In this document: piece by piece, positions 7,534 to 36,753 of the stretch
How positions within the stretch are numbered: the first letter of the stretch is position 1
Layout of the letters: each line of letters begins with the position of its first letter
Assembly (NCBI GenBank): GCA_016213365.1
Contig: JACRAP010000023.1
Location: 15,871-79,870 of the forward strand
DNA from: Candidatus Berkelbacteria bacterium
GTDB lineage: Bacteria; Patescibacteriota; UBA1384; 2-12-FULL-50-11
DNA length: 64,000 bases
Direction: 5' to 3'
Made by a program: the position numbers and the translations under genes
The notes under the pieces: generated by a model
What the model was told of the DNA's origin: nothing
The model's database searches: none
The model's input: only the letters and a program-made list of their open reading frames with translations

Positions 7534-7554
7534 AATAAAAACCGTCCATACGGC

Positions 7555-12994: not shown

Positions 12995-13608
12995 CTACCG
13001 CTTGTTGTTTGTCCGGACGCAAAACACTGTGTTAATTCAGCGTCTTTTGTTGTAACATCGATAGCTACCGAACCTGATAAACTAGAGGTTGATAATTTAT
13101 GAGTTACAGTCATTTTCGTAAGTCCGTAATCAATTAGATACTGTCCCTGATTTAAATTTGATCCATCGCCGATTGCTGCTCTAGTTAGCGGGCAGTTAGT
13201 AACTGTGTTAGAATCTATACCACTTAATTCGTCAATAATTTCGCAATCTCTCACTTCCGCAACCCTAACTCGACCGTTAATTGCAAATCGATATTTTTTG
13301 ACTGTATAATTTGAATCTCCTGGATATTTTAGTAATAAACTTAGATCTTTTTCTGCATCGCGATAACAAAATCCTAAATATTCGAGGTTTTCGGTACAAA
13401 ACGGCGGGTGGGTTTTAATATCCACATACCTTAAATCGTTAGCAATTTGATCGATGATACTGCGTGTTACTTGGGTTTGTTCCCTAACAGCATTAGATTT
13501 ATTAGCAGAATTTGCGCTACGAGCAAAAACACCGATCGATAAAATAATAAGTCCTGAAAAAATTGCGATCGACACAAGTACTTCGATTAATGTAAATCCC
13601 CTATTCAT
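12952..13608 (-). CDS. Type IV minor pilin / pseudopilin (prepilin N-terminal methylation motif)
   Basis: MNRGFTLIEVLVSIAIF has the class III signal G|FTLIE. Confidence 0.75.
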   Translation of the reverse strand: MNRGFTLIEVLVSIAIFSGLIILSIGVFARSANSANKSNAVREQTQVTRSIIDQIANDLRYVDIKTHPPFCTENLEYLGFCYRDAEKDLSLLLKYPGDSNYTVKKYRFAINGRVRVAEVRDCEIIDELSGIDSNTVTNCPLTRAAIGDGSNLNQGQYLIDYGLTKMTVTHKLSTSSLSGSVAIDVTTKDAELTQCFASGQTTSGRCYNLRTTIVPGVY

Positions 13609-14339
13609 TAGTTTTGCTCAAAACCTTTCCAGTTTGTAAGTAAGGTCGACATTTCAGTAGTTTTCCACTCACCGCGATCTTCCCAAATTATTACAGAGCG
13701 AACCCGGACCACATTACCGGGTAATACAAAATAGTCCGAAACTCCCGTGGGTTTATTTTTATTTAACGACTCCTTTGAGGCGATACAGTAATTATCTGCG
13801 CTATCACAGTCGCTGTAACCCTGTAATCTATTACCGTCCTTTTTATCAGCGTAAGTTTCCGCACCTTCTACCTCGGCGTTACAATCAACAAAATCTTCGG
13901 ATGTGTAGCTTTTGGCGCCGTAAGCTTCGATACAAATTAATCTGTAACCAGTAAGACCGGATGTACTAGTAATTACTGCACCGGTCAGTTGTGATTCTTG
14001 TGCAGTAAGTCCATCAAACGTTAGTCTTTTTTGTAAGCTAGTTTTAGTTGCAGAAGTGGAACTTACGCTATACCACCCATACTCATCGGAACTGACCGCC
14101 GGAGCAAACCAAACTTTTTCACTATTTACCAAAACACCACCGGAAGCAACGTTGTCGTTTCTGACTTTTGTAACAAGCTCTAATCCTTCGCTCGCCCAGC
14201 GATTTGTTTCGGTGTTATCGGCAGTTTGACTGGTTCCTTGAATGATCGTATTTGTAAGCCCAGCAACGGCGCCAGCCACCATAAACAAAATACCGGCGGC
14301 TATAAGTACTTCTATTAATGTAAATCCCCTCTTTTGCAT
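13608..14339 (-). CDS. Type IV minor pilin (prepilin-type N-terminal cleavage/methylation domain)
   Basis: MQKRGFTLIEVLIAAGILFMVAG. Confidence 0.75.
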   Translation of the reverse strand: MQKRGFTLIEVLIAAGILFMVAGAVAGLTNTIIQGTSQTADNTETNRWASEGLELVTKVRNDNVASGGVLVNSEKVWFAPAVSSDEYGWYSVSSTSATKTSLQKRLTFDGLTAQESQLTGAVITSTSGLTGYRLICIEAYGAKSYTSEDFVDCNAEVEGAETYADKKDGNRLQGYSDCDSADNYCIASKESLNKNKPTGVSDYFVLPGNVVRVRSVIIWEDRGEWKTTEMSTLLTNWKGFEQN

Positions 14340-14340
14340 A

Positions 14341-14943
14341 TTAATTAAACTTAAAACTTAACTTTCCGGTAACGTTATTCACACTTAGCGTGGCAGTTTT
14401 TTCGCCGTTATTCAAGCTAAGATCTGAAAAATCTATCCAGCTAGAATAGACAATATTTTGCGGATCGACAATTTCAATTCCAACATTTGGCGTATACTGG
14501 GCTTTAAATAGTTGCTGGGTTGGTACTTTAAATAATACAAAGACAGGACTAGTTGTTTGGTGTGTAACACCGTTACTTAACGGAATTTTTTCAACTACAC
14601 AATCCCCATATGTTTGTGAAATAACTTCTGAATTTGTAAAACTTGATATTTTACACGTTGCGGTGGGGTTATCAGTTGTATCATCAACTCTTAATATGTA
14701 GACATCTTTATTACTATCAGACGGAAAGTAAAGGGCGTAATAGCCCTTGCCGCTGTCGAACTGTTGAGTTGAGCCAGCAAGTAATCGAACTTGTTCGAGT
14801 TTTGCCTGGAGTAACTGGGCATCGTTGGCGATATTGTTTTTAGATAGCGAGCGGTTGATATTTGGAATTAATAGCGTCGCCATTAAAGCGATAATCGCGA
14901 TTGTGATAAGTACTTCAATTAAAGTAAATGCTTTTTTTATCAT
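14341..14943 (-). CDS. Type IV minor pilin
   Basis: MIKKAFTLIEVLITIAIIALMATLLIP. Confidence 0.75.
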   Translation of the reverse strand: MIKKAFTLIEVLITIAIIALMATLLIPNINRSLSKNNIANDAQLLQAKLEQVRLLAGSTQQFDSGKGYYALYFPSDSNKDVYILRVDDTTDNPTATCKISSFTNSEVISQTYGDCVVEKIPLSNGVTHQTTSPVFVLFKVPTQQLFKAQYTPNVGIEIVDPQNIVYSSWIDFSDLSLNNGEKTATLSVNNVTGKLSFKFN

Positions 14944-15713
14944 TAACTACTCAACCCCAGATACCAGCGTAACAAATACTCACCCCAAAACAAAGCAACA
15001 ATTGCACCGGCTACTAAAAACGGCACAAATGGAACGGCTGATGTGGGCTTGGCTTTTTTGGTTAATATTAATATTGCTCCTATTAATCCGCCGCCGATAA
15101 ACGCAGTCGCGAGCATTACCCAAACGTTGGGGTACGCCACCAACAATCCTAGGGCCAGCGCAATTTTAATATCGCCCTTACCCATCCATTTTTCGCCAGA
15201 CGGATATACTAAAACTAAAATCGGTACAACGGCGGTGATTGCGCCTATTGCCAAGACGCTAACTTCGCCCCAATACATAAAACCAAAAATCGCAGCGAAT
15301 ATTATCAGTAAGTAGCTTAAAGTGTCGGAAACGAGCATTTCGCTTAAGTCTTGTACAATTAATATTACCAGCAAGGAAAAAATTACGATTAGTATTTTGG
15401 TTAAAATTATTTGAGTGGTTAAGTCGGCGCCAAAGCTTGAAATTAAAAACCAACTGCTTGCAGTCAAAATTCCCATTGCCAATTCAACAACTGGGTATTG
15501 GTACGAGATCGGCTTTTTACAGTATCTGCATTTGCCGGCAAGCATTAAGTAACTTACAAGTGGGATTAAATCGCCGGCATGGAGTTTATGACCGCATTTC
15601 GGGCATTTGGACCTACCAGTTACTGCCGAGCTTAAGTCGTCGAATCTTGCGATAACTACGTTTAGGAACGACCCAATAACTAAGCCGAAAATAAATAGTA
15701 CAAAGTAGGTCAT
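14943..15713 (-). CDS. pilD: Prepilin peptidase (A24 family) PilD
   Basis: N-terminal C4 zinc-binding CPKCGHKL...CRYCKK and a polytopic membrane protein with conserved Asp region. 256 aa. Confidence 0.9.
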   Translation of the reverse strand: MTYFVLFIFGLVIGSFLNVVIARFDDLSSAVTGRSKCPKCGHKLHAGDLIPLVSYLMLAGKCRYCKKPISYQYPVVELAMGILTASSWFLISSFGADLTTQIILTKILIVIFSLLVILIVQDLSEMLVSDTLSYLLIIFAAIFGFMYWGEVSVLAIGAITAVVPILVLVYPSGEKWMGKGDIKIALALGLLVAYPNVWVMLATAFIGGGLIGAILILTKKAKPTSAVPFVPFLVAGAIVALFWGEYLLRWYLGLSS

Positions 15714-15797
15714 AATTTTAGATTAACAGCATATCCGCAGAAGTGCTATTGCAATCAATCTTCATGGGATATTTCACCCTAGAATAGTTAATTACAA

Positions 15798-16385
15798 CTA
15801 TTGTGGGCCGTAAGTGACGAACAGTCTTTGGGATTCAACATTTGTTGTGCCAAGCGCACCAATTTGAATAGTTGTATTGGACGCGACACAACCAGAAATG
15901 CAGAGTTGGCTTGCGATTGGTTCGTAAGTGCCATTTCCATTCGTAACTAATCCATCAGACGAGCCACTATTTTTAGTTGTTTCTTGCTTGTTTTCAAGTT
16001 CCCACGCAAGTAGGTACTTTTCACCCCCTGTAGTGGTTCTAAATCTAGCAAATGTTCCACCGGACGGATCTGGATCTTTACACACTGACTCGCTACTCAT
16101 ATATCCGTTGTCAACTAAATCTGCCTTAAGACCACGGCAATGATTTCCATCGCCCGATACTTCCTGTAAGAATATTGTAGTTGATTTGATGGGATAAGAA
16201 TTTTTATCCACAGCATATTGCTCCATTGCTAGCGAAATTGCTTTCGCATTGTTCTTCCTTTGCGTATCTCGTGCTCTACGTTGTGCACCGCTTAGGGCAA
16301 CAATAATTAAAGCAGCAAGAATACCGATGATAGCGATAACTACCAACAGCTCGATTAAGGTGAAACCTTTGTTTTTATTTAGCAT
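15798..16385 (-). CDS. pilA: Type IVa major pilin PilA-like (paralog 1)
   Basis: [59 protein letters not shown], 195 aa, with C-terminal Cys residues. Confidence 0.8.
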   Translation of the reverse strand: MLNKNKGFTLIELLVVIAIIGILAALIIVALSGAQRRARDTQRKNNAKAISLAMEQYAVDKNSYPIKSTTIFLQEVSGDGNHCRGLKADLVDNGYMSSESVCKDPDPSGGTFARFRTTTGGEKYLLAWELENKQETTKNSGSSDGLVTNGNGTYEPIASQLCISGCVASNTTIQIGALGTTNVESQRLFVTYGPQ

Positions 16386-16461
16386 TTAATCCCTCCAATT
16401 GTTATTACAGCTTTTAGACTGTCTCTAGGAGAGCACGCTCCCCTAGTAGACAAACTAAGAG

Positions 16462-17025
16462 CTACTGTGGACCGTAAACAACGAAATATTTTACATTTGT
16501 AGTTGCATCAAGCCCTGTTAGGGTTAGCCCGTTAACTGTTAAGCTACCTGAAGTAGGTCCATATACACCATTACCCGACGTACCAGTTTTTGCGATTTCT
16601 TGGGTATTCTCAAGCAACCAAGCTAAAATATACGAAGACCCCAATGTTGCTGAACCCGTAGAGTAAGCAGCATAACTTGCTGTTTTTCCTGTAGTTGGAT
16701 CCTTACAAATTGCATTACTACTCATATAGGATGCGGTAATGAGCGTCGTAATCGCCGTAGGACAATCATAAGTTGGTACTGGGAAGTTTGCCTGAGCCGA
16801 AGCTGGATAAGAGCCGCTGTTATCCACAGCATATTGCTCCATTGCTAGCGAAATTGCTTTCGCATTATTCTTCCTTTGCGTATCTCGTGCTCTACGTTGT
16901 GCACCGCTTAGGGCAACAATAATTAAAGCAGCAAGAATACCGATGATAGCGATAACTACCAACAGCTCGATTAAGGTGAAACCTTTGTTTTTTATATTTA
17001 TTTTCATTTTTCTCCTTTCGGACAA
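16462..17025 (-). CDS. pilA: Type IVa major pilin PilA-like (paralog 2; first 60 aa identical to paralog 1, divergent C-terminal domain)
   Basis: Same N-terminal 60 aa. About 175 bp of DNA (16822..16995) is near-identical to 16205..16378. Confidence 0.8.
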
Positions 17026-17148
17026 AATTTATACTTTAACTTTCGTCGACCGCCCCTCTCGGTTTGAAAAGATCGGTGAAAGCCCTCAAATACAATATCT
17101 ACCTTACAAAAATTCCTGTCAAGTTTTAGCAGATTTTACATATACAAA

Positions 17149-18219
17149 TTACTGAATTGCCCCGGCAAGGCCGTAAATCGGCACTATAATCGAGAACACT
17201 AAGAAGGCAACGCCAAGCCCTACGATAATAAACACGAGCGGTTCGATTAACGAAGCGAAATTTTTAGTTGATTGATTGGTTTCAGCTTCGTAAAAGTCGG
17301 CTAGCTTGCCTAATACTTGTTCAAGCTTACCGGTACGTTCACCGGCGGCGATCATTTCGGTAACGGTTGTTGGGAAGTCTTTATACTTCATCATCGTTTG
17401 TGAGATCGGTGCGCCACGCTCAACGTTGCGGGCAATTTGCTTGAGCGCTTCGCGGAAAATTACCGAATCCATTACTAAAGCTACGGAGTCAATCGCTTGG
17501 ATAATCGGCACTCCGGCTTGCATCATAATACCCAAAATCCTAGTAAATCGTGCCATCTCTAAATCTTTAATTAAAATTCCCACTACCGGCGTTTTAAATA
17601 ATAAATTATTGAGCACTCTTTGCCCCTCGATCGTCATTAAATACCTTGTAAGTAAGAAAATTAAAAACGCGATTGCGGCGATATAGATATACCAGTAATG
17701 GATAATAGAATTTGTAATTGTAACTACTAACTGGGTGGTCCACGGCAAGTCTAAGCCGGATTCGATAAAGACCGACTCTAGCGCCGGAACAATTCTGGTT
17801 ACCATAATTACACCGACAATAAACATCGATACCACAATTAACGCCGGGTATAACATCGCACCGATTACCCTGCTTCTAAAGGCGTAGTCACGCTCTAACT
17901 CGTCGGCAAGTAAATTTAGGGCAACGTCAAGCTTACCAGAAGATTCCCCGGCCGCTACAACAGAAACAAAAACGTGGTTGAAGATTTTCGGGTGTTTTTT
18001 GATCGCATCGGACAGTCTGTAACCGTTTTCAAGGTCGTTCACCAGTTCAATTAATGAGTCGTAAACAATTTGGTTTTTAGTTTGCTCTGAAAGCGATCTA
18101 ACGGTTTGTACTAACGGTAGCCCCGCATCAAGCATTACTGCCATCTGCCGAGCAATAAACGAGCGCTCTTTGGCAGAAACCCTATTTAGTACATTAAAAC
18201 TGAACTTTCGGTTTGACAT
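17149..18219 (-). CDS. pilC: Type IV pilus assembly platform protein PilC (GspF family)
   Basis: Two GspF repeats and three TM segments. 356 aa. Confidence 0.9.
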   Translation of the reverse strand: MSNRKFSFNVLNRVSAKERSFIARQMAVMLDAGLPLVQTVRSLSEQTKNQIVYDSLIELVNDLENGYRLSDAIKKHPKIFNHVFVSVVAAGESSGKLDVALNLLADELERDYAFRSRVIGAMLYPALIVVSMFIVGVIMVTRIVPALESVFIESGLDLPWTTQLVVTITNSIIHYWYIYIAAIAFLIFLLTRYLMTIEGQRVLNNLLFKTPVVGILIKDLEMARFTRILGIMMQAGVPIIQAIDSVALVMDSVIFREALKQIARNVERGAPISQTMMKYKDFPTTVTEMIAAGERTGKLEQVLGKLADFYEAETNQSTKNFASLIEPLVFIIVGLGVAFLVFSIIVPIYGLAGAIQ

Positions 18220-18223
18220 ATGT

Positions 18224-19291
18224 TTAATAAACCATCATTTTGAACGCTTTTGGATCGATCGCCCAAGATAGGGCGGTGTCGATTGTAATTTCTCCCCTAC
18301 TTACAAGTTCTGCCATTACTTTATCGAGCGAAATCATTCCCTCGGCGGCGGAAGTTTGGATAATATTGTTTAGTTGATGGGTTTTACCTTCGCGGATGGT
18401 GTTACGCACTGCCGAATTAGCAACCATTATTTCTGTTGCTAGAATTCGACCGGATTGAGCTCTTGGCAGAAGTCTTTGCGAAACAACGCCGAGCAATACG
18501 TTAGCAAGTTGCATTCTAACCTGTTGTTGTTGGTGTGGCGGAAAGACGTCGATAATTCTGTCTGCTGTTTGGGCGGCGCTGTTGGTATGAAGCGTGGTAA
18601 ATACAAGATGACCGGTTTCAGCCAGCGTTAAAGCGGCTTCGATCGTTTCTAGGTCGCGCATTTCACCAACTAGAACAACGTTTGGATCTTCACGCAAACT
18701 TGAACGCAAAGCACGGGCGAACGAGTTAGTGTCCGAACCGACTTCTCGTTGTACAATCATTGACTTTTTATGATCGAAAACGTATTCGATCGGATCTTCG
18801 ATGGTAATAATATGTTCGGCGCGCTTTTGGTTGATCGCTTCTATTAACGCCGCAAGCGTGGTCGATTTTCCGTGACCGGTTGGACCGGTAATAATCACAA
18901 AACCTTGACTTGGTTCGGTAAATCTTTCAAGAATCGGCGGAACCCCTAAATCTTCAAGACTTCTAATTACACGTGGGATTAAACGTAGGGCGACAGAAAT
19001 AGAACCTCTTTCGTAAAAGGCGTTGGTTCGAAAACGCATCGATTCGTAGCCGAACGAGAAGTCGATTTCACGACGTTGTTGTAGGCGCTCCATCTGTTCG
19101 GCGGTCATAATGCTCATAAGCAAGCGTTGGGCAGATTCTGGGGTAACAGGTGAGGCACCGTCAACTGGCATTAATTTACCGTCGATACGAATTGTTGGTG
19201 GCATACCAACTGTAATGTGTAAATCGCTTGAACCACGCGAAATAGCGGTGTCTAAAAGTTGCTTCATCTCTGCTGTCATTGCTTCTGTCAT
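18224..19291 (-). CDS. pilT: Twitching motility retraction ATPase PilT
   Basis: Walker A GPTGHGKSTT, Asp box, Walker B and His box. 355 aa, typical of PilT. Confidence 0.9.
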   Translation of the reverse strand: MTEAMTAEMKQLLDTAISRGSSDLHITVGMPPTIRIDGKLMPVDGASPVTPESAQRLLMSIMTAEQMERLQQRREIDFSFGYESMRFRTNAFYERGSISVALRLIPRVIRSLEDLGVPPILERFTEPSQGFVIITGPTGHGKSTTLAALIEAINQKRAEHIITIEDPIEYVFDHKKSMIVQREVGSDTNSFARALRSSLREDPNVVLVGEMRDLETIEAALTLAETGHLVFTTLHTNSAAQTADRIIDVFPPHQQQQVRMQLANVLLGVVSQRLLPRAQSGRILATEIMVANSAVRNTIREGKTHQLNNIIQTSAAEGMISLDKVMAELVSRGEITIDTALSWAIDPKAFKMMVY

Positions 19292-19335
19292 ATGTATACC
19301 TCACATTCTACGTTAATGATTGTTTTTAATTATGT

Positions 19336-22011
19336 CTACATCGTGCTCGAAATATCTCTAATTGATGCGGTTGTTACCCGCATTACTTCGTCCACTGTTG
19401 TTATTCCTTTTAAGGCCTTGATTAAGCCGTCTTGCATCATTGTTATCATACCCTCTTTTATGGCTTGATTTTTCAATTCCGAGGCCGGTACTTTTCTATT
19501 TGCCAGCGCTTCTATGCCCGGTGTCATCGGCAACACTTCGAAAATTCCAATTCTACCCAAGTAACCGTTTGAGCATTTAGCACAGCCCTTACCGTGATAA
19601 AAAGTTAATTGCTCTTTGTTGATATTTTTTAGCTGACCGGTCGGAATTTCAGAGATATGCTTTAGGGCAAAATCCTTTACGGCCGATGGCAACTCAACAT
19701 GCTCTTTACAGTTATCACAAATTTTTCTAACTAAACGTTGGGCGATTACTGCGTTAATCGACGAGGTAATCAAAAACGGCTCAACACCCATATTAATTAA
19801 TCGTGGTAAGGCGCCGGAAGCGTCGTTGGTGTGAAGCGTCGAAAGTACCAAGTGTCCAGTTAAGGCCGAGTGCGTTGCCATCGCCGCTGTTTCTAGATCG
19901 CGAATTTCACCGACCATAATTACGTTAGGGTCTTGGCGCAAAACCGAACGTAAGCCGTCTGCGAAGTTGAAACCGATTTGTGGTTTTACCTGTGATTGGT
20001 TGATGCCAGGGAGCTCGTATTCAACCGGGTCCTCAAGCGTCACGATATTTACCCCCGGTTTACTAATTCTATTTAGAATTGCGTAAAGCGTGGTGGATTT
20101 ACCAGACCCAGTCGGACCGGTGGATAGGATAATTCCAAACGGTTTGTCGATATTTTCTACCAGTCGGTCGAAGTTAGTGCCTGTTACGCCAAGTTGCTCA
20201 AGCGTTAAAATACCAGCGCTTTTGTCCAGTAAACGCATAACCACTTTTTCACCGTGAACGGTTGGTAACGTTGAAACACGAATATCAACCTGGTGTCGAT
20301 CGATAATAACATCGAAACGACCGTCTTGCGGAACGCGTTGTTCGTCGATTTTCATTTTTGAGAGAATTTTAACCCTAGAAATTAGCGGCGAGCTTAAAAA
20401 TCCTGGGACACGCAAGACATCGTGCAAAATACCGTCGATTCTGTAACGCACCCGAACTGTTTCTTTTTCGGATTCAAGATGAACATCGCTGGCTTTCATC
20501 CTAATTGCCAGAAAAATTGTTGAGGCGATAATCTCTGGGATTGCGCCCTTTTTATAAACATTTGCTAGTTCCTGTATGCTGGTGACTTCTTTTTGAATTA
20601 GGGCGTCAAGATTTTCGTTTTCAAGTGATTTTGTTTGCTCGCTAGCTAATTCTTCTAACTGCTCGTTTTGCAATTCGTTAGGTTTATTTATGATTTCACT
20701 TGCTTCGACCGTTACACCACCCTCTAGAGGCGGGGGTGGAATTTTTTTAAATGACGGTATTTTAGCGGGCTCGGTTTTTTGATCTTCGGGCTTGTTTTGT
20801 TTTAGCGCCCCTGGAGTTGGTTGTTCCTTTGGTTTGTCCGACTCAAATTCTCTGCTTGTTGAAATAGTTTGCTCTTTGGGTTTGGTTAAAGTTGGCGGTG
20901 TTGTAACGACTGCTTCTTTTGTGGGTTGTTGAGTTGGCGCCTGAACAGGTTTTGAAGGATAGAATTTCAGAGCGTGTGTTAGCGACTCCTCGTCGGTAAT
21001 ATAGCGATCAACCAAAACTTTATTTTTTTGCTCGATGTAATGCAAAATTTCTTTTACGTGGACGTTTTCGGGGTTTACAACCGCCACTTTTATTTGCGGT
21101 ACTTCGTAACCGCTACCGGATTTTGTTTCGCCAAAAACGACTAATCGATATTTACTTGCAACCTCCTGCGGAATTTTTTTAATAATATTTTGTGGAATTT
21201 CCAGTTTGCGTAAATCAACGTGTTTAATCCTTGGCTCAACTTCGTTGATTAAATCTTTTTTATTTAATGCCTGTATCGGTTGGAATTTTCCGAGGATTCC
21301 GCCGCTTTTTTCTTGTTCCTGAGGTTTTGGCTCGGCTTTTAATTCCGGCTTTACCTGTTCTACTGGTTTTACTGTTTCGGTTTTGGGTTGTAGCGGTACA
21401 GTTGGTTGCTGGGGCGGTAACTCTGGTTTTACCTCTTCTGGAGATTTTGTTTGTGGAGTTACTGTTTTGGGAACAGATTCAATGCTCGGTACTTTAGTTA
21501 GTTTAGCGGTTTCGGGGACAAACGGCTTGGGCATCGCCAGTTGTTTAACGCGTTGCTCAAGTACTTTTATTAACGCCTTAAGCTGGGCTGGGTTAACAAG
21601 CGACAAATGAATTCTAAGCCCTTTTTGTTGGCGGATATTAGCGATAATTTTGGGCGCGTCTTTTTGAAGTTTCGACGGTTTGCCGATCGCCAAATAAAAA
21701 TTATTGCCTTCGATTTTATAGGGTACAACTTGATATTGCTTAATTATCTCGATCGGGATCATCCGGGCAACTGCCGGACTAATTGGTACGTTTGTTAAAT
21801 TTACAATATCTAGATCGAAATATTCGGCGAACTCGTCGACAATCTGCTCGATAGTTAAAAGACCTTTTTCGATTAAGTAATTTTCAATCTGCTCGAGATC
21901 TTTGCCTTTTAAAATATCTTTAAACCCGGGCTTAAGTAGCTCTCGCTGAATTAACTGCGAAACAAAGGCGCTATCGGCTCTGCTAAAATTTCGGGTGGAG
22001 TTGAACGCCAT
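19336..22011 (-). CDS. pilB: Type IV pilus assembly ATPase PilB (GspE family) with an extended N-terminal region containing Pro/Lys/Glu-rich linkers
   Basis: Walker A GPTGSGKSTT, a C-terminal tetracysteine (CDNC...CAKC), and GSPII_E N-terminal domains. 891 aa versus about 570 typical, with long low-complexity PT/KPE linkers. Confidence 0.9.
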   Translation of the reverse strand: MAFNSTRNFSRADSAFVSQLIQRELLKPGFKDILKGKDLEQIENYLIEKGLLTIEQIVDEFAEYFDLDIVNLTNVPISPAVARMIPIEIIKQYQVVPYKIEGNNFYLAIGKPSKLQKDAPKIIANIRQQKGLRIHLSLVNPAQLKALIKVLEQRVKQLAMPKPFVPETAKLTKVPSIESVPKTVTPQTKSPEEVKPELPPQQPTVPLQPKTETVKPVEQVKPELKAEPKPQEQEKSGGILGKFQPIQALNKKDLINEVEPRIKHVDLRKLEIPQNIIKKIPQEVASKYRLVVFGETKSGSGYEVPQIKVAVVNPENVHVKEILHYIEQKNKVLVDRYITDEESLTHALKFYPSKPVQAPTQQPTKEAVVTTPPTLTKPKEQTISTSREFESDKPKEQPTPGALKQNKPEDQKTEPAKIPSFKKIPPPPLEGGVTVEASEIINKPNELQNEQLEELASEQTKSLENENLDALIQKEVTSIQELANVYKKGAIPEIIASTIFLAIRMKASDVHLESEKETVRVRYRIDGILHDVLRVPGFLSSPLISRVKILSKMKIDEQRVPQDGRFDVIIDRHQVDIRVSTLPTVHGEKVVMRLLDKSAGILTLEQLGVTGTNFDRLVENIDKPFGIILSTGPTGSGKSTTLYAILNRISKPGVNIVTLEDPVEYELPGINQSQVKPQIGFNFADGLRSVLRQDPNVIMVGEIRDLETAAMATHSALTGHLVLSTLHTNDASGALPRLINMGVEPFLITSSINAVIAQRLVRKICDNCKEHVELPSAVKDFALKHISEIPTGQLKNINKEQLTFYHGKGCAKCSNGYLGRIGIFEVLPMTPGIEALANRKVPASELKNQAIKEGMITMMQDGLIKALKGITTVDEVMRVTTASIRDISSTM

Positions 22012-22014
22012 TCA

Positions 22015-22281
22015 TTAAAAATTCTCGAAGGCGTTAGCGCGACCCAAATTACTTGAATCAACCGTTACCGGTACTTTTGTTGGAACTGTTAGTTTATTTA
22101 ATTGCTGTATAACTTCGTTACTACTAGAGAATAAATCCTCCGGAACGTTTTGTAAGGGTTTTGCTTCGGCAGTAATCGCTTCTTGTTTCGGTAGGTTTGT
22201 TAGTAAGGTAAAGACAAATGCGATTATCGCAACAAATAGTAGCGCAACGCCGATTAAAGTTTGAATTTTATTTCCGCTCAT
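22015..22281 (-). CDS. Small single-TM hypothetical protein in the pilus operon
   Basis: 88 aa with a TM helix IGVALLFVAIIAFVFTLL. Overlaps the upstream gene by 4 nt. Confidence 0.35.
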   Translation of the reverse strand: MSGNKIQTLIGVALLFVAIIAFVFTLLTNLPKQEAITAEAKPLQNVPEDLFSSSNEVIQQLNKLTVPTKVPVTVDSSNLGRANAFENF

Positions 22282-22829
22282 TGGTTTCCTCCCCCTTGAT
22301 ATACTAACCCAAGTTGCATCGTTACGGTTAATATTCCGCTTTTATCAGCAGAGATGGTTTGTGACTGAACTTTTGCGGTTCTGATATTTGTATTTATTGC
22401 GCTAATAAATTTAGTAACGCTTGTTAGCGTGCCGTTAAAAGATACTGTAACCGGAACTTCTGCAATTGTTGAGGCGTCGGTGCCTGGTACGGTTTGATTA
22501 GCTGTTGTATTACCGACCGTTACGCCTGAAAATACGATTCCGGAATTAGCGCCGATAGTCTCGATCATTACCAAAACTTCAGGAATTTGGTTTTGTTTTG
22601 GCATCGCTAAATACATCGCTCTTAAGGTTGATTGTACTTGCTCGCCTTTTTCTTTGATTTGTTTCAAATCAGCGATTCTGGTTTTGTACGATTCCAATTC
22701 AACTGAACGGGCTTTAGCATCGAGTGATTTTTCGCCAAAAACCGTAATTTGTCCGCGTAGAAATGCAAACCAACCAAAAACTGCCAGTATTAAAAGAAAT
22801 ATTCCTAATCGTGAGTGTTTATTTTCCAT
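22278..22829 (-). CDS. PilO-like pilus biogenesis inner-membrane protein
   Basis: N-terminal TM plus coiled-coil and a periplasmic beta domain. Position after the PilN-like gene. Confidence 0.5.
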   Translation of the reverse strand: MENKHSRLGIFLLILAVFGWFAFLRGQITVFGEKSLDAKARSVELESYKTRIADLKQIKEKGEQVQSTLRAMYLAMPKQNQIPEVLVMIETIGANSGIVFSGVTVGNTTANQTVPGTDASTIAEVPVTVSFNGTLTSVTKFISAINTNIRTAKVQSQTISADKSGILTVTMQLGLVYQGGGNQ

Positions 22830-23422
22830 TATTTAACCTTACTTAAATCTATTTGAGCTGAAATAGAAAAAGTTACCCTTCTAGCATCTTCGCCGCTGGT
22901 AAAACCGTTACTGGTTAATGCAACCGAGCTAAATGGAGTAGCAGAACTTTGCGTACCGTTTTGCCATGAAACTAATAAATGAGCGAGACTGGAGAGTGTA
23001 GCGGTTTCGCCGTCAGCTTTAAAGGCGCCGTTACTGGAGATATTGATAGCGGTAAGACGAACATTCTTAGGGGTAACGGCGTTTAGTTTAGCGTAAAAAC
23101 CGTTCCAATTTAACTTGCTAGCCAGGACGGTTGAAAGTTTTTCGCTACCGGTTAGTACTTCTTCAACTTGTTTATTGAGATTTTTATATTCTTCGGAGTT
23201 AAGTTCGGTTTTAGCTTGCTGAATATCACTCTGAAGTTTTTCAATTTTGTTGGTTTGGAAAAAATTTAAACCAAACATTAAGGCAATCTCGATCGCTACA
23301 ACTACGAAGATGATTTTACCAAAAATATCGAGCGGCTTGCCCGAATCTTCAACAGATGCAATCGGGTCTTGCGGGTCTTGCTCGTGCGGCTCTTTTGTAA
23401 CTAAGCGATCTTGAGTATCCAA
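22829..23422 (-). CDS. PilN-like pilus biogenesis protein
   Basis: Cytoplasmic N-terminus, single TM (IIFVVVAIEIALMFGL), and a coiled-coil periplasmic region. First gene of the operon; no pilM seen. Confidence 0.5.
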   Translation of the reverse strand: MDTQDRLVTKEPHEQDPQDPIASVEDSGKPLDIFGKIIFVVVAIEIALMFGLNFFQTNKIEKLQSDIQQAKTELNSEEYKNLNKQVEEVLTGSEKLSTVLASKLNWNGFYAKLNAVTPKNVRLTAINISSNGAFKADGETATLSSLAHLLVSWQNGTQSSATPFSSVALTSNGFTSGEDARRVTFSISAQIDLSKVK

Positions 23423-23522
23423 CGCCCCTCCTTTTTTATCCTATGAATTTACTTTACTTGGCATTACTAGAAGCTGTCAACATTTGTAAGTTTGTAGTGA
23501 ATTATCTGCTTTGAGATTATTG

Positions 23523-23598
23523 GCAGGGGCGACAGGAGACGAAAGTCGCACTGCGAGCTCCTAGATTCTCGCTGGCTTAGCTAGCTCGAAACCGAACC
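23523..23598. repeat. 76-bp direct-repeat copy 1 (tRNA-Trp 3'-end-like 16-mer, Shine-Dalgarno sequence and GTG start)
   Basis: gcaggggcgacaggagacgaaagtcgcactgcgagctcctagattctcgctggcttagctagctcgaaaccgaacc is about 93% identical to 24354..24430. Confidence 0.75.
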
Positions 23599-23642
23599 AG
23601 TAAATACAAAAGTTAATACTATCAGCTATTCGGCTAAGACTT

Positions 23643-24383
23643 TCATTCGTAGAATTGCGTCCACCCTTCCATCGTTCCCTCATTACGAAATGCTTGATTT
23701 AGCTTTTCTTCTAAATCTGGCTTCGACCTATAAAGACTCTTATAAAGATTAGGGTAAAGAGGTTGGAGATAATAATATTGGGGGTATTTCACCTTCATCG
23801 CTTCGTATAACCCCGTCCAGAAAGTAAATACTTTTTTAGCATCATAAAAGCAAATCTCGCTCGGTATCGCGTTAAGCCCCAACTTATGTGTTTTATAGGT
23901 TATCTGATCCACAACCCTCTTCCATGTCTTATCGTTAACTAACGCAAGTATCTGAACATTAATAATTTCCCTGTCATTCGTACGCTCAGTTTCATAGATA
24001 TGTGAGTGAGTGAGGGCGTTTCGCACTACTATTACTTCATCATAATCCTGCTTTAAGGGGTGCGTTCCTCCAATTAGTTTATTGAATTTACTGCCAACCC
24101 TTTCATTTAGTAAGTCGGCAGACCAATTATTATTTTTTATTAACAAATATATAACCCTGTTGAAGTACCCTTCTATACTATTAACTAACAGAATTATTGC
24201 CTCAGCTGCTTGAGTGCTTTCCCCGCAGGATATTGGCTTACCTGCTTTGTGATTTGGGTTCCTCTTTGAATACTCGTATGCCAATAAGTAGTGATTCAGG
24301 GCATCTTCAGCTGTAAAAACTGGGGATATTTCCAAATGATTCATATTATATTTTGCAGGGGCGACAGGAGACGAAAGTCGCAC
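23643..24383 (-). CDS. Hypothetical 246-aa protein bounded by the 77-bp direct repeats; possible HEPN-like (Rx4H) motif
   Basis: GTG start preceded by AGGAG at a 6-nt spacing, both encoded within repeat copy 2. Motif VVRNALTHSH. No integrase or transposase signatures. Confidence 0.5.
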   Translation of the reverse strand: MRLSSPVAPAKYNMNHLEISPVFTAEDALNHYLLAYEYSKRNPNHKAGKPISCGESTQAAEAIILLVNSIEGYFNRVIYLLIKNNNWSADLLNERVGSKFNKLIGGTHPLKQDYDEVIVVRNALTHSHIYETERTNDREIINVQILALVNDKTWKRVVDQITYKTHKLGLNAIPSEICFYDAKKVFTFWTGLYEAMKVKYPQYYYLQPLYPNLYKSLYRSKPDLEEKLNQAFRNEGTMEGWTQFYE

Positions 24384-24430
24384 TACGTGCTCCTAGATTC
24401 TCACTAGCTTAGCTAGCTCGAAACCGAACC
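24354..24430. repeat. 77-bp direct-repeat copy 2, followed by a 20-nt tRNA-Trp T-arm remnant (24425..24444)
   Basis: gcaggggcgacaggagacgaaagtcgcactacgtgctcctagattctcactagcttagctagctcgaaaccgaacc, then tgcgacctacggtt, which equals part of tRNA-Trp. Confidence 0.75.
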
Positions 24431-24457
24431 TGCGACCTACGGTTGACGTACTGCTTA

Positions 24458-24533
24458 TGGCAGGGGTGACAGGATTCGAACCTGCGACCTACGGTTTTGG
24501 AGACCGGCGCTCTACCAACTGAGCTACACCCCT
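24458..24533 (-). tRNA. tRNA-Trp (anticodon CCA)
   Basis: Manual fold of aggggtgtagctcagttggtagagcgccggtctccaaaaccgtaggtcgcaggttcgaatcctgtcacccctgcca: 7-bp acceptor stem, anticodon loop CUCCAAA, T-loop TTCGAAT, CCA encoded. Confidence 0.9.
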
Positions 24534-24722
24534 GCCATAAGCAAACTATCACAGCGCTCTTCCGGGGTTTAAGCGTCGCAAGTATGCGACAAGCTTAAAC
24601 CCGTCTCGGAGGCTCGAACTGAAACTGTTCAGTTCTCGCTGGCTCCTCGACCCAACTGAGCTACACCCCTAAGACTGGCAGTGCCAGTTACATAATTTTA
24701 CCAGTTTTTTATGAGTAATCTA

Positions 24723-24887
24723 TTACTTACTCTCTTTGTGAGTAGTCTTGGCTTTACAGCGATTGCAAAATTTGTTCAGCTCTAGGCGAACCGTCGTGTT
24801 GGTTTTATTCTTTTCGGAATAATAATTTCTTTCTTTGCAAACAGAGCACTCAAGTGTGATCGGTTCGCGAGTTTTTTTCTTTGCCAT
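24723..24887 (-). CDS. rpmG: 50S ribosomal protein L33 (54 aa); not in the supplied ORF track
   Basis: Manual translation MAKKKTREPITLECSVCKERNYYSEKNKTNTTVRLELNKFCNRCKAKTTHKESK shows the C4 zinc-ribbon L33 pattern. Confidence 0.85.
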   Translation of the reverse strand: MAKKKTREPITLECSVCKERNYYSEKNKTNTTVRLELNKFCNRCKAKTTHKESK

Positions 24888-25007: not shown

Positions 25008-25011
25008 AATG

Positions 25012-25095
25012 TGCTGGGTGAGGGATTCGAACCCCCGAAGGCACAAGGCCATCGCGTTTACAGCGCGCTACGTTTGACCACTTCGCTAACCCAGC
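25012..25095 (-). tRNA. tRNA-Tyr (anticodon GTA) with a long variable arm
   Basis: gctgggttagcgaagtggtcaaacgtagcgcgctgtaaacgcgatggccttgtgccttcgggggttcgaatccctcacccagca. Anticodon loop CUGUAAA. Confidence 0.85.
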
Positions 25096-25742
25096 ATATT
25101 ATTTATTGCGTATCTTATGTCGTCCATTAGGTTATCCCACAAACGCTTGTCTGCATAGCGTATATGAACTAATCCGTTTTTCATTTTATCATTATGATTA
25201 CTGGTTAGTCCAGATTTAATATATGGTTTTGTAAACTGAGATTTAGGTATATCTAGTAGTTTAGACCAGTAACTAATAATTTTACCAACATCCCTATTTT
25301 CATGCGTGTATAAATAAACCCTTAGCTTCTCTTCATTGATTTGATAAATCTCCCTAAGCATTCTTAAGAAAATAGAAATTACTTGCGGATCTGAATTTGC
25401 TAGGTCTACAACACCGAATGATTTTTTTGAACCTTCACCTAGATATATAAAGAGTCCGGCAATAAATAACTCATTTTGTTTTGTGTTCAGTCTTGTTAAC
25501 TTCGAGTAACTCAATGGTTTTGATAAAAAAGTTAGCTTATTTGAATATACCGTTGTTCTTCTAGGAATTTCTCTCCGTTTAAGGGTTCTATATATTGACC
25601 ATTGAGAAATATTCAAAATATTTGCTATTTGTGGCGCACTCTTTCCCTGTGAATATAAATCACAAATCGATATATCTATATTTTCTTGCATTTGAATAAT
25701 AATACACAAATCAGTATCCACTTGCACTTCAAACCGAGCCAC
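25086..25742 (-). CDS. HTH plus LAGLIDADG-like (homing-endonuclease-like) protein wedged between tRNA-Tyr and tRNA-Thr
   Basis: N-terminal HTH (SAPQIANILNISQWSIYRTLKR) followed by ELFIAGLFIYLGEGSKK, which resembles a LAGLIDADG motif (GLxIxLG-acidic-G). The ORF ends overlap both flanking tRNA genes; alternative start at the MQEN Met (25691). Confidence 0.45.
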   Translation of the reverse strand: MARFEVQVDTDLCIIIQMQENIDISICDLYSQGKSAPQIANILNISQWSIYRTLKRREIPRRTTVYSNKLTFLSKPLSYSKLTRLNTKQNELFIAGLFIYLGEGSKKSFGVVDLANSDPQVISIFLRMLREIYQINEEKLRVYLYTHENRDVGKIISYWSKLLDIPKSQFTKPYIKSGLTSNHNDKMKNGLVHIRYADKRLWDNLMDDIRYAINNMLG

Positions 25743-25808
25743 CTGTCGGATTCGGACCGACGACCTGCTGTTTACAAAACAGCTGCTCTACCGCTGAGCT
25801 AAGGTGGC
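25737..25808 (-). tRNA. tRNA-Thr (anticodon TGT)
   Basis: gccaccttagctcagcggtagagcagctgttttgtaaacagcaggtcgtcggtccgaatccgacaggtggct. Anticodon loop UUUGUAA. Confidence 0.85.
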
Positions 25809-33921: not shown

Positions 33922-36753
33922 ATGGTAAGGTTCCCGCGTATTAGCTTTCCATTTTCAAATCCGGTTAGACTAACAAAACTTCGTAACCGTCTTTTTGGAG
34001 TGAAAAAAGTCAGGAAATTCACCCTTAAAAAGCTTGGAAAATGGATCTTGATCTTTATCGGACTATGTATTTTTTCGATAATAATTTTATTTGCTTGGTT
34101 TGCAAAAGACTTACCAACGCCGGGTAAAATTATCACGCTTGCACCAACATCCTCAACTCGTTTATTTGATAGAAACGGCAAACCGCTTTATACAATTTCA
34201 AACGAACAAAAAAGAATTATCGTTGAGTCTAAAGATATCCCGGATGTTGTTAGGCACGCAACAATCGCTATCGAAGATAAGAATTTTTATAACCATATTG
34301 GGATCGATGCTAAAGGCCTTGCAAGGGCGGTAATTTTTGGCGGAAATAGAGGGGGCGGTTCAACAATCACCCAGCAGTACGTTAAAAATGCCGTATTAAA
34401 AGATAATAAGCGCAAAATTGTTCGAAAAGTTAAAGAGGCGATTTTAGCGATAGAGCTCGAGATAATGTACAGCAAGGACGAAATTTTAACGATGTACTTA
34501 AACCAAATCGGTTACGGCGGTAGTATCTACGGAATTGAAGCGGCCGCACAATCATATTTTGGTAAGAGCGCTAAAGAGCTTACGGTTGTTGAAGCCGCCA
34601 CGCTTGCCGCGCTTCCGCAGGCCCCAACAACACTTTCACCGTACGGTACCAACACTGATCGATTAATTGCCAGACGTAATTTAGCGATCGACAATATGGT
34701 CGATCTTGGCTACATCAAAAAAGAAGAGGCCGATACGGCTAAAAAAACAAAATTATCCGTAAAACCAAAAAGGGATTCGATCGTGGCGCCACACTTTGTG
34801 ATGTACGTAAAAGAGTGGTTGATAAAGTTTTTTGCCGAACAGTTGGGTGATGAGCAGCTAGCCGATCAAAAACTTAATCAGGGTGGCTTTAACGTTACAA
34901 CCACGATTGATTTAGATAAACAAAAACTTGCCGAAGAAACGGTCAAAAAATATGCCGATACGCTCTTAAAGAGTACTGGTGCAACAAACGCCGGACTGGT
35001 CGCGATCGATCCAAGGGTCGGCGAGATCCAAGCGATGGTCGGGTCGATTGATTACTTTAACGAAAAGTTCGGCGCGTTTAATATTGCCACCGCCAAGCGA
35101 CAGCCAGGTTCTTCGTTCAAGCCGATTGTTTACGCCGCCTCCTTTAAGGAGGGTTATAACCCCGCAACTACTATCTTTGATGTTAAGACAGACTTTGGCG
35201 GAAATTACGTACCCCAAAACTACGACAGTAAATTTAGGGGTCCGGTTACAATCAGACAAGCCCTGGGTAACTCGCTTAATATTCCTGCTGTAAAAGTTCT
35301 GGCACTTACTGGAAATGAAACAACTTTCAAAACCGTTGAGGATTTGGGAATAACAACCTTAAAAGATAAACAGCGCTACGGACTATCGCTAGTTCTTGGA
35401 GGCGGCGAGGTGATGTTAACTGAAATGGCGCAAGCATATGGAGTGTTTGCGACCAACGGAAAACTTGTGCCAGTAACCCCAATACTTAACATTAAAGAAT
35501 CGGGCGGGAAAGAAATTTATAAACACGAACCGGAAAAACTAGCAAAACAAGTACTTGCGCCGGAGATCGCTTATCAAATTACCGATATTTTAGCAGACGT
35601 TAACGCAAAGCGACCGATGTTTGGAAGATTGCTTGGCAACCTAACCTTACCTGGTCGAGTTGTTGCGGTAAAAACCGGTACTACAAACTCAATCAGAGAT
35701 GCTTGGACAATAGGTTACACCCCACAATTAGTAACCGCTGTTTGGGCGGGTAACAACGACAATACCCCGATGAATCGTGGTGGCGGTTCGGTAGCCGCGG
35801 CGCCAATTTGGGCAGAATATATGAGAAAAGCTCTTGCTGATGTTCCGGCAGAAAGGTTTACAAAGCCAAATGGACTGCAAACAATTTCAGTAGATCGACT
35901 ATCAAATAAATTACCAGTAGAAGGATCGGAAGTTATTAAGGATATTTTCGCTAAGTGGCAGATTCCAAAAGATAAAGATGATTTTCATTTAACTATTAGG
36001 GTATGCAGGGAAAACGGTTTAATCGCCCAAGACGACATCCCAGACGAATTAACAGAAGAAAGAACGTTCTTAAATATTCGATCGGAACGACCAACCGTAC
36101 CGGCATGGGAAGTGCCTGTCCAACAGTGGTTGAAAGAAAATAATTTGATTAATCCCCCACCTAAGGAAAATTGCCAGCTTAATTCACTTAGTCAACCAAC
36201 AGTCACTATTACCTCGCCAACTAGCGGATCTACGGTTTCTGGTACATTTACCATCTCGGCCACCGCAAGCGCAACATCTGGAGTTAAATCAGTAGATTTT
36301 TATATCGACGACACCGCGATCTTTAGCGATAACAACAGTCCGTATCAAACTACTTATAACGCATCTAATTTATCAAACGGTAGTCACACCATTAAAGCGG
36401 TGGTAATTAGTAAAAACGGTTCAACCACAACTACCACAGTAAGCGTTATCTCAACAACTGATTCCCAAGCTCCTGCTGACGTATCAAATTTGCTTGGCAT
36501 ACCAGGACCGGGCGCAAATAAAGTAACCTTAACTTGGGACAATCCAAGTGATACTGACTTTGCTTCGGTAAAAATTTATGTTTATATCGATAGCACAAGT
36601 ACTTTAGTAAAGACTGAAACTGTATTAAGCCCAACAGATAATACAATTATCTCAGGTCTTAATAGTTCTGTAGCGTACAAGTTTTTAGTAAAGTCTGTTG
36701 ACACTTCTTTAAACGAAAGTGGCGGAACTTTCGTAATTCTTACGCCTTTTTGA
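33922..36753 (+). CDS. mrcA: Class A penicillin-binding protein (transglycosylase plus transpeptidase) with C-terminal Ig/fibronectin-like beta domains
   Basis: GT51 motif EDKNFYNHIGID, transpeptidase SxxK (SSFKP) and KTGTT, and a C-terminal Ser/Thr-rich beta-sandwich repeats. 943 aa. Confidence 0.9.
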   Translation: MVRFPRISFPFSNPVRLTKLRNRLFGVKKVRKFTLKKLGKWILIFIGLCIFSIIILFAWFAKDLPTPGKIITLAPTSSTRLFDRNGKPLYTISNEQKRIIVESKDIPDVVRHATIAIEDKNFYNHIGIDAKGLARAVIFGGNRGGGSTITQQYVKNAVLKDNKRKIVRKVKEAILAIELEIMYSKDEILTMYLNQIGYGGSIYGIEAAAQSYFGKSAKELTVVEAATLAALPQAPTTLSPYGTNTDRLIARRNLAIDNMVDLGYIKKEEADTAKKTKLSVKPKRDSIVAPHFVMYVKEWLIKFFAEQLGDEQLADQKLNQGGFNVTTTIDLDKQKLAEETVKKYADTLLKSTGATNAGLVAIDPRVGEIQAMVGSIDYFNEKFGAFNIATAKRQPGSSFKPIVYAASFKEGYNPATTIFDVKTDFGGNYVPQNYDSKFRGPVTIRQALGNSLNIPAVKVLALTGNETTFKTVEDLGITTLKDKQRYGLSLVLGGGEVMLTEMAQAYGVFATNGKLVPVTPILNIKESGGKEIYKHEPEKLAKQVLAPEIAYQITDILADVNAKRPMFGRLLGNLTLPGRVVAVKTGTTNSIRDAWTIGYTPQLVTAVWAGNNDNTPMNRGGGSVAAAPIWAEYMRKALADVPAERFTKPNGLQTISVDRLSNKLPVEGSEVIKDIFAKWQIPKDKDDFHLTIRVCRENGLIAQDDIPDELTEERTFLNIRSERPTVPAWEVPVQQWLKENNLINPPPKENCQLNSLSQPTVTITSPTSGSTVSGTFTISATASATSGVKSVDFYIDDTAIFSDNNSPYQTTYNASNLSNGSHTIKAVVISKNGSTTTTTVSVISTTDSQAPADVSNLLGIPGPGANKVTLTWDNPSDTDFASVKIYVYIDSTSTLVKTETVLSPTDNTIISGLNSSVAYKFLVKSVDTSLNESGGTFVILTPF

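Follow-up and report, generated by a model that had tools for sequence, protein, structure and literature searches.

The locus examined here belongs to a metagenome-assembled genome (MAG) of Candidatus Berkelbacteria, a member of the Candidate Phyla Radiation (CPR; Patescibacteria), of which one contiguous stretch of 64,000 nucleotides (64 kb, hereafter the window) was analysed. Its minus strand carries, in this order, rpmG (24887..24723), tRNA-Trp (24533..24458), a cargo open reading frame (ORF), a PilN-like gene (23422..22829), pilO and pilB-type genes, where the intact tRNA gene is flanked on both sides by fragments of tRNA-Trp and the cargo gene is bracketed by a direct repeat. The features of the locus, from rpmG to the PilN-like gene, are as follows.

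24723..24887, minus strand: rpmG, encoding ribosomal protein L33 (Pfam Ribosomal_L33, E 7.9e-18), the conserved upstream neighbour of tRNA-Trp
24695..24703, minus strand: putative extended -10 promoter TGGTAAAAT of the tRNA-Trp transcription unit, predicted from the sequence
24652..24670, minus strand: outer 5' fragment, repeating tRNA-Trp positions 1-19 without change (5' strands of the acceptor and D stems, and some of the D-loop)
24564..24651, minus strand: D-loop insertion with two hairpins, hairpin 1 (24603-24651) containing two tandem G-A/A-G internal loops and hairpin 2 lying at about 24565-24602
24554..24563, minus strand: remnant of the outer D-arm 3' strand, GGAAGAGCGC (tRNA positions about 18-27)
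24534..24543, minus strand: 5' strand of a 10-bp helix extending the acceptor stem of the intact tRNA, pairing with 24452-24461
24458..24533, minus strand: intact tRNA-Trp with CCA anticodon and encoded CCA end (ARAGORN; Rfam tRNA, 72.8 bits)
24352..24444, minus strand: copy B of the 3' module, comprising tRNA positions 38-57 (24425-24444), a T-loop insertion of about 55 nt, and the T-stem and acceptor 3' strands (24354-24371)
23643..24344, minus strand: cargo gene, 233 aa from the ATG at 24344, of an uncharacterised family with an R[ND]x3H (HEPN-type) motif, its start placed by alignment with homologues
23520..23598, minus strand: copy A of the 3' module, comprising GGTTCG, an insertion of about 55 nt and CTCCTGTCGCCCCTGCCA, some 40 nt ahead of the pilN promoter
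23451..23480, minus strand: pilN-operon promoter TTGACA-18-TAAAGT (promoter scan), which is conserved and bounds the variable interval downstream
22829..23422, minus strand: PilN-like gene (19 homologues), the anchor for finding related loci

Related loci, numbered with the prefix L, were collected by means of the PilN-like anchor from contigs found by exact look-up and from GTDB representative genomes, while an exact look-up of the window's L33 protein for sister strains returned no record. The direct repeat around the cargo gene (23520-23598 and 24352-24430), already recognised in a preliminary description of this DNA, measures 79 nt, its two copies being 94% identical, 832 bp apart and different at five positions. 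The same description had placed tRNA-Trp fragments on both sides of the intact gene, and these were recovered as the exact 19-nt copy of positions 1-19 upstream and an exact 20-nt copy of positions 38-57 (24425-24444) downstream; all the elements that it listed are present, while the D-arm 3' strand GGAAGAGCGC at 24554-24563 had been overlooked. The 29-mer core of the repeat occurs twice, with none expected from shuffles, and its tRNA-like end, TCCTGTCRCCCCTGC, occurs three times in the 64-kb window against 0.09 expected, a resemblance beyond chance as had been supposed. This end matches the tRNA-Trp 3' end of L002 perfectly over 17-18 nt, and its acceptor strand CGCCCCT is that of the tRNA-Trp allele of L002, L007 and L013, one base off the window's own tRNA. 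Read on the gene strand, the repeat consists of GGTTCG, about 55 nt and CTCCTGTCGCCCCTGCCA, representing in order the start of the T-loop, an insertion, the 3' strands of the T-stem and of the acceptor, and the CCA of tRNA-Trp. In copy B, tRNA positions 38-51 come before this, giving a 3' half that begins in the anticodon loop, while copy A begins at position 52. Judged from the sequence, the 79-nt repeats are identified as two copies of a degenerate 3' half of tRNA-Trp, the T-loop of which is split by about 55 nt, and copy A would be the displaced tRNA-Trp 3' end, a duplicate adjoining pilN.

On neither strand does the repeat fold better than shuffled sequences (z-scores of -0.2, -1.2 and -1.0), and the T-loop insertion gave no supported consensus secondary structure. 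Copy number was a check proposed in the preliminary description, and the exact repeat does not appear to be a dispersed element: its core GGAGACGAAAGTCGCACTNCGNGCTCC had no match in the genome, metagenome and viral contig collections, this genome evidently lying outside them. A 12-mer, TTCTCGCTGGCT (AGCCAGCGAGAA on the gene strand), is common to copy A (23566-23577) and the D-loop insertion (24633-24644), and two direct repeats of 38 nt that precede pilN in L008 contain a related motif, AGCGAR-N5-RGGAGC (1335-1351 and 1538-1554). This motif was considered as a dispersed repeat and rejected, as it is present only in copy A and twice in L008.

The tRNA-Trp gene always lies upstream of pilN in the 12 loci having both genes, and PilO and then PilB/T2SSE genes follow the PilN-like gene in every locus. 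The rpmG-tRNA-Trp order is shared by L005, L012 and L013, the three loci in which rpmG was checked, while TTGACA...TA(C/G)AGT is kept upstream of pilN in L007, L008, L010, L011, L012 and L013. The interval from tRNA-Trp to pilN ranges from 177 nt to 4.7 kb over the 12 loci and carries unrelated cargo each time, such as GNAT / RNase T / GNAT, abhydrolase / 2'-5' RNA ligase / PRTase, SET / methyltransferase, kinase / NUDIX, DUF2200, a 655-aa membrane protein, and several proteins of no assigned family, among others. Downstream of the intact gene, 3' fragments of tRNA-Trp, which begin in the anticodon loop or the T-loop, are found in six of the 12 loci (the window, L001, L005, L012, L013 and L016), and cargo is bracketed by them in the window, L005 and L016. 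The repeated insertion at tRNA-Trp put forward in the preliminary description is borne out by this variety of cargo and by the 3' fragments. The comparison with relatives for an empty site, also proposed there, yielded L007, where the 3' end of tRNA-Trp is only 12 nt from the -35 element of pilN and which looks like an empty site on its sequence. L011 is the closest relative, with a pilN identity of 84%; its DNA differs at the site of copy A, and no copy A lies upstream of its pilN.

The tRNA-Trp sequences diverge strongly among the relatives. In L012, the intact tRNA-Trp is followed in series (7826-7935) by a 22-nt 3' end of the resident type and a 17-nt 3' end of the CCTGTCACCCCTGC type, the latter adjoining the pilN promoter; as the locus bears the 3' ends of two tRNA-Trp types, the resident tRNA-Trp has apparently taken the place of an older allele. 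Modules with a split T-arm are present as one copy in L013, two tandem copies in L001, a truncated copy in L012 and probably one copy in L005, and their T-loop insertions are homologous by blastn and MAFFT (window and L013, 70% over 94 nt; L013 and L001, 78% over 59 nt). Integration of mobile elements is recognised to produce partial tRNA duplications (PMC9897764), and the pattern of the interval is the classical signature of repeated tRNA-gene insertion with partial duplication, but miniature and integrase-less.

The upstream side of the tRNA gene is composed of the 19-nt 5' fragment, an insertion of about 97 nt, the structured element of which spans about 90 nt, and GGAAGAGCGC, which is the D-arm 3' strand; the upstream piece therefore represents tRNA positions 1-27 with a D-loop insertion, which folds with z-scores of -3.8 and -5.6. 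Hairpin 2 of this insertion, given earlier as a perfect 17-bp stem, has 10 + 6 bp with a 2-nt bulge. The outer 5' fragment starts 52 nt after the rpmG stop codon, where the tRNA-Trp of L001 and L005 begins, behind the same TGGTAAAAT element. Equivalents of this element (TGGTAAAAT / TGGTAAGAT / TGGTAAACT) precede tRNA-Trp in L005 and L001 and the outer 5' fragment in L013, while a simple promoter scan gave no score to the putative extended -10 at 24695..24703. The helix extending the acceptor stem coincides with an inverted repeat (I1) of 17 nt and 100% complementarity, with a fold z-score of -5.4, and the 3' half with its T-loop insertion starts 13 nt past the intact tRNA. The flanking fragments together make up one outer tRNA-Trp-like gene with D-loop and T-loop insertions, which holds the intact tRNA on the 10-bp extension helix. 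The preliminary description had the fragments but missed that those of both sides form one conserved outer tRNA-like unit around the functional tRNA.

The same order and spacing of the unit is found in L013, a Berkelbacteria MAG from a different study, the pilN of which is 49% identical. L013 possesses a fragment of positions 1-18 (7531-7548), the D-loop insertion (7549-7632), GGAAGAGCAT matching its own D-arm, the extension helix and the tRNA, followed by a fragment of positions 30-54, a 47-nt insertion, a fragment of positions 56-74, a terminator and the pilN promoter, so that the nested unit is present there without cargo. The last two bases of the D-arm remnant match the tRNA of the respective locus, being GC in the window and AT in L013. 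RNAalifold on the unit of about 320 nt from the two loci gave a giant cloverleaf of 92 pairs, 20 of them compensatory, with the real tRNA standing in for the anticodon arm. The helices outside the tRNA keep 41 of 41 pairs between the window and L013; both bases are changed in 14 of these pairs and one base in a single pair, and no pair is broken (slid controls, 0-3). Hairpins 1 and 2 of the D-loop insertion keep 31 of 31 pairs, eight with compensatory changes, and six of the 10 pairs of the extension helix are changed on both sides, all still paired. The tandem G-A/A-G loops are retained while the neighbouring pairs covary, and the G-U pairs are compatible with the tRNA-sense strand only. Identity between the two loci is 72.5% in the D-loop insertion, 75% in the rpmG coding sequence (58% at third positions), 36-38% in the leader and linkers, and 54% in pilN. 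The kept pairs, the compensatory changes and the identity of the D-loop insertion indicate that these elements are therefore under selection, or were recently exchanged and then constrained; on this sequence evidence, the D-loop insertion and the extension helix appear not to be neutral debris.

A search of Rfam 15 at E <= 10 returned only three tRNAs, with nothing in 24345-24457 or 24534-24672, and no further example of the nested unit was found by blastn among the relatives or by pattern scans of metagenomes and viral contigs. A gapped pattern of the D-loop insertion gave 11 metagenome matches, all in high-GC coding DNA for ABC ATPases and rejected as chance, while the viral scan gave none.

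The cargo ORF is annotated by NCBI, on a contig of 86.9 kb, as hypothetical protein HY844_02865 with 230 aa, and the 246 aa given in the preliminary description are merely those of the longest ORF. The N-termini of all seven closest homologues align with the ATG at 24344, 2-7 residues before a conserved H-x-EIS, which indicates a protein of 233 aa, and the 13-aa extension from the GTG within the repeat is unique to the window locus. The ATG at 24344 has no obvious Shine-Dalgarno (SD) sequence. As the starts of the homologues match this ATG and none has a counterpart of the 13-residue extension, the repeat does not supply the start codon, a role which had been assigned to it earlier. The SD sequence and GTG are likewise no general feature of the repeat, as they are not conserved in the homologous modules of L013 and L001 and the cargo of L005 has its own SD outside the module; in copy A they open a dead frame of 24 codons, not the 17 reported.

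The cargo protein has no match in Pfam, PADLOC, PHROG or NCBIfam. A homologue search with k-mer prefiltering recovered only the protein itself, and its family surfaced by a full HMMER scan of 1.84 billion representatives, which contained 48 homologues, the best being 39-40% identical over the full length. The top conservation of the family is the motif E-x4-R-[ND]-x-[ILV]-x-H-x-H-[ILV]-[WY]-E, where R108 is invariant and H113 is conserved to at least 90% in an alignment of 38 sequences, so that the earlier guess of a HEPN domain gained ground through the R[ND]x3H motif. Two homologues have weak Pfam matches to HEPN_Cthe2314 and HEPN_Swt1 (E 0.0035 and 0.0072), others have weak matches to CARF_HEPN and RTasHEPN, and one adjoins a PIN toxin-antitoxin pair, while no partner antitoxin or MNT gene was found in the window. 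A single-sequence AlphaFold2 model of the cargo was unusable (pLDDT 35.7), and a profile search of the PDB was empty. The family alignment supports the assignment of the cargo protein as a putative member of this HEPN-motif family. A terminator scan of the gene strand found no terminator between tRNA-Trp, the cargo ORF and pilN, so the cargo is likely expressed by read-through from the tRNA-Trp promoter.

Other observations concern the surroundings of these loci. The two tandem T-modules of L001 are 15 nt apart with no ORF between them, and the terminator after the tRNA-Trp of this locus (attaagaaaagcgctc...) is duplicated after the second T-module (489-790); the displaced 3' half would therefore have carried its terminator along. 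Five independent short-read contigs (L007, L009, L010, L011 and L033) break off 24-404 nt before pilN, two of these within a tRNA-Trp 3' end, which suggests that in many samples the site is rich in repeats or varies between strains. In L013, a tRNA-Tyr / tRNA-Thr(tgt) pair (6854-7023) is inverted relative to the window (25011-25808) and other relatives, and the whole tRNA cluster is rearrangement-prone. A Pro/Gln/Gly-rich membrane-anchored protein of about 655 aa, absent from the window, is encoded between tRNA-Trp and pilN on the strand opposite to pilN in four relatives (L001, 796-2763; L016, 5881-7878; L018, 5829-7826; L019, 5870-7843). The window also contains genes for DprA (7555-8646), RecO (56358-57098) and a RadA-like ATPase (36740-38041), and a full type IV pilus set (13608-23422).

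The explanation favoured here, with a confidence slightly above even, is that the 3' flank of tRNA-Trp is an insertion hot spot and that the repeat is an att-like duplicated 3' module arising from the capture of the HEPN-family gene. The anatomy of the locus, the homology of the modules, the insertion polymorphism, the absence of a recombinase and the motif of the cargo family are observations. A promoter-less, single-gene cargo would have entered the 3' flank of the tRNA-Trp unit by recombination, leaving two copies of the repeat. More generally, small cargo would be added at tRNA-Trp 3'-end sequences, each event shifting an older 3' end downstream, as with attL/attR. The mechanism of recombination and the direction of events are conjectural: a recombinase may act in trans, or homologous recombination may follow DNA uptake or natural transformation, and DprA, RecO, RadA and the type IV pili of the window could serve an integrase-free gain of cargo. 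Copy B would lie within a conserved transcription unit, where the functional tRNA-Trp is nested in an older tRNA-Trp-like shell. This shell is compatible with the hot-spot explanation, and may be a functional RNA, a processing scaffold or an insertion bringing a replacement tRNA.

Several points weigh against the hot-spot explanation. Neither the 12 intervals nor 20 scanned ORFs of 243-444 aa in the window yielded an integrase or other recombinase, which upholds the lack of an integrase stated in the preliminary description. Classical att cores are contiguous tRNA 3' ends, while the repeat is interrupted by about 55 nt, and the upstream 5' fragment with its conserved D-loop insertion is not predicted by ordinary 3'-end integration. 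The exact repeat unit was found nowhere else in the collections of genomes, metagenomes and viral contigs, and the material consists of assemblies only, in which neither a circular or excised form nor a strain-level empty site for this genome was seen.

The shell may instead be a functional RNA unit that guides or regulates the maturation of tRNA-Trp, or that persists as a two-piece tRNA-like RNA, which we regard as possible though doubtful. The shell, consisting of outer acceptor, D and T stems with expanded D-loop and T-loop, would then carry tRNA-Trp on a long processing helix replacing the anticodon arm, and the repeat would be a domain of the shell, the duplication of which is secondary. 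Such a function would agree with the architecture shared by the window and L013 despite a pilN identity of only 49%, with the 41 kept non-tRNA pairs (14 compensatory), the retained G-A loops and the sense-strand restriction of the G-U pairs, with the giant cloverleaf from RNAalifold (92 pairs, 20 compensatory), with a D-loop insertion nearly as conserved (72.5%) as the rpmG coding sequence (75%) beside linkers at 36-38%, and with the native promoter upstream of the outer fragment and the terminator closing the unit in L013. However, the full unit is known in two genomes only, and the tRNA is plain in L001, L002 and L005, all nearer by pilN. The T-loop insertion, moreover, has no supported consensus structure (z-scores of -0.2 and -1.2), the outer anticodon stem is not intact, no Rfam family corresponds to the unit and the metagenome pattern scan gave only spurious coding matches; the inverted repeats of a DNA element could covary too, and horizontal transfer could mimic conservation. 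Somewhat more tentative still is the idea that tRNA-Trp is deliberately nested in a conserved transcribed shell, either as an undescribed 'tRNA-in-tRNA' precursor or as a self-compensating mobile tRNA cassette, the 3' domain of which would double as a docking site for promoter-less cargo such as the HEPN gene.

Replacement of tRNA-Trp driven by a homing endonuclease is improbable. A free-standing LAGLIDADG family would cut tRNA alleles, and a donor tRNA would be copied in with debris left on both sides, a route which would account for the fragments on both the 5' and 3' sides and would suit the strongly different tRNA-Trp alleles and the two types of 3' end in series in L012. The window encodes a LAGLIDADG-like protein of 218 aa (25086-25742) with the LAGLIDADG alpha-beta fold and a conserved acidic residue ending the motif helix, the gene having a GC content of 0.31 against about 0.40 nearby, and homologues lie directly upstream of tRNA-Trp in L006, L018 and L019 and of other tRNAs in L016, L018 and L019. 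No tRNA fragments were found beside any of these genes when looked for, however, and no such gene lies at tRNA-Trp in the window or L013; nuclease activity and a target site are presumed, WhiA-type LAGLIDADG proteins are non-catalytic regulators, and the conserved structure of the D-loop insertion is left unexplained. A group I intron was rejected, with no match to an intron model at the locus; those of an mSystems 2026 paper (PMC13011429) are far larger and located in the anticodon loop. Two further explanations are unlikely. That the repeat is a new class of cassette providing an attachment site, a ribosome-binding site and a GTG start to any cargo, as proposed in the preliminary description, is very doubtful: copy B has AGGAG-N6-GTG in the frame of the ORF, copy A contains it too, and the ATG at 24344 is without an obvious SD, but the seven closest homologues all start at the position of the ATG, NCBI skips the GTG, the SD+GTG spacing is missing from the modules of L013 and L001, the cargo of L005 has its own SD and start past the module, and the repeat was not found elsewhere in the collections searched. 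An assembly artefact, in which strain variants were concatenated at short shared k-mers, would suit a MAG with exact repeats of 19-20 nt and five related contigs that break 24-404 nt upstream of pilN, but is extremely improbable, as the architecture recurs in the independent assembly of L013, diverged with compensatory changes, and the 79-nt repeats differ at five positions.

Among known systems, the locus can be compared with islands and prophages targeted to tRNA genes by tyrosine integrases (attL/attR), with which it shares an intact tRNA at one end, partial 3' copies as direct repeats bracketing the cargo, fragments starting in the anticodon loop or T-loop, variable cargo, an apparent empty site and tandem repeated events. 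Anticodon-loop and T-loop sublocations of such islands are attributed to Williams 2002 in PMC9897764. Unlike these islands, the 12 loci have no integrase and their cargo amounts to one to five small genes (0.4-4.7 kb), and the T-loop interruption of about 55 nt, the upstream 5' fragment with a structured insertion and the conserved shell around the tRNA are additional here. Integron cassettes are likewise promoter-less single ORFs with repeats of about 60-120 nt, co-oriented behind an upstream promoter and diverse in their often toxin- or defence-like cargo, but intI and attI are absent here and the array is located at a tRNA gene; the repeat, unlike attC, is tRNA-derived, lacks the imperfect palindrome of R and L core sites and folds no better than shuffles.

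In being a tRNA-shaped gene interrupted in the D-loop, the anticodon arm and the T-loop, the unit resembles the multi-intron and split tRNA genes of archaea, except that its outer anticodon stem is broken, its central 'insert' is a complete tRNA-Trp and no bulge-helix-bulge motifs were identified in it. The host, a bacterium, is not known to have the archaeal splicing endonuclease. The processing stems of rRNA cut by RNase III also enclose a mature RNA in a long helix of 5' and 3' flanks, the sequence of which varies while pairing is kept; here, in contrast, the enclosed RNA is a tRNA, and cleavage by RNase III is conjecture only. The cargo family is similar to HEPN toxins and defence RNases (Rx4-6H) in its E-x4-R-[ND]-x3-H-x-H motif, the small size of its proteins and the one relative beside a PIN toxin-antitoxin pair, but differs in that the cargo protein reaches no Pfam or PADLOC HEPN model, has no antitoxin or MNT partner in the window and is of a putative HEPN fold. 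Free-standing homing endonucleases occur in tRNA gene clusters, for example SegB of phage T4. The LAGLIDADG-like gene is comparable to them as a low-GC gene for an endonuclease fold between tRNA genes, a different tRNA in each genome; unlike SegB, its product has a LAGLIDADG and not a GIY-YIG fold, the gene belongs to bacterial chromosomes (CPR and Omnitrophota), and an endonuclease role is putative.

CPR bacteria have tiny genomes with few recognisable mobile elements, and their gain of accessory and defence genes is poorly understood. The islet itself is read here as a tRNA-targeted insertion with partial tRNA duplication, which is of a known kind, while the conserved tRNA-in-shell architecture is the truly unusual part. 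The loci compared here point to a lineage-wide hot spot, where very small, recombinase-less cargo piles up at a single tRNA-Trp gene and is bounded by tRNA-derived repeats, and the analysis also brought out an uncharacterised HEPN-motif family and a large family with the LAGLIDADG fold beside tRNA genes in CPR and Omnitrophota. If the shell is functional, it would be a new way of organising or processing a bacterial tRNA; it may also represent a novel means by which an insertion breaks an essential tRNA gene and brings the substitute along.

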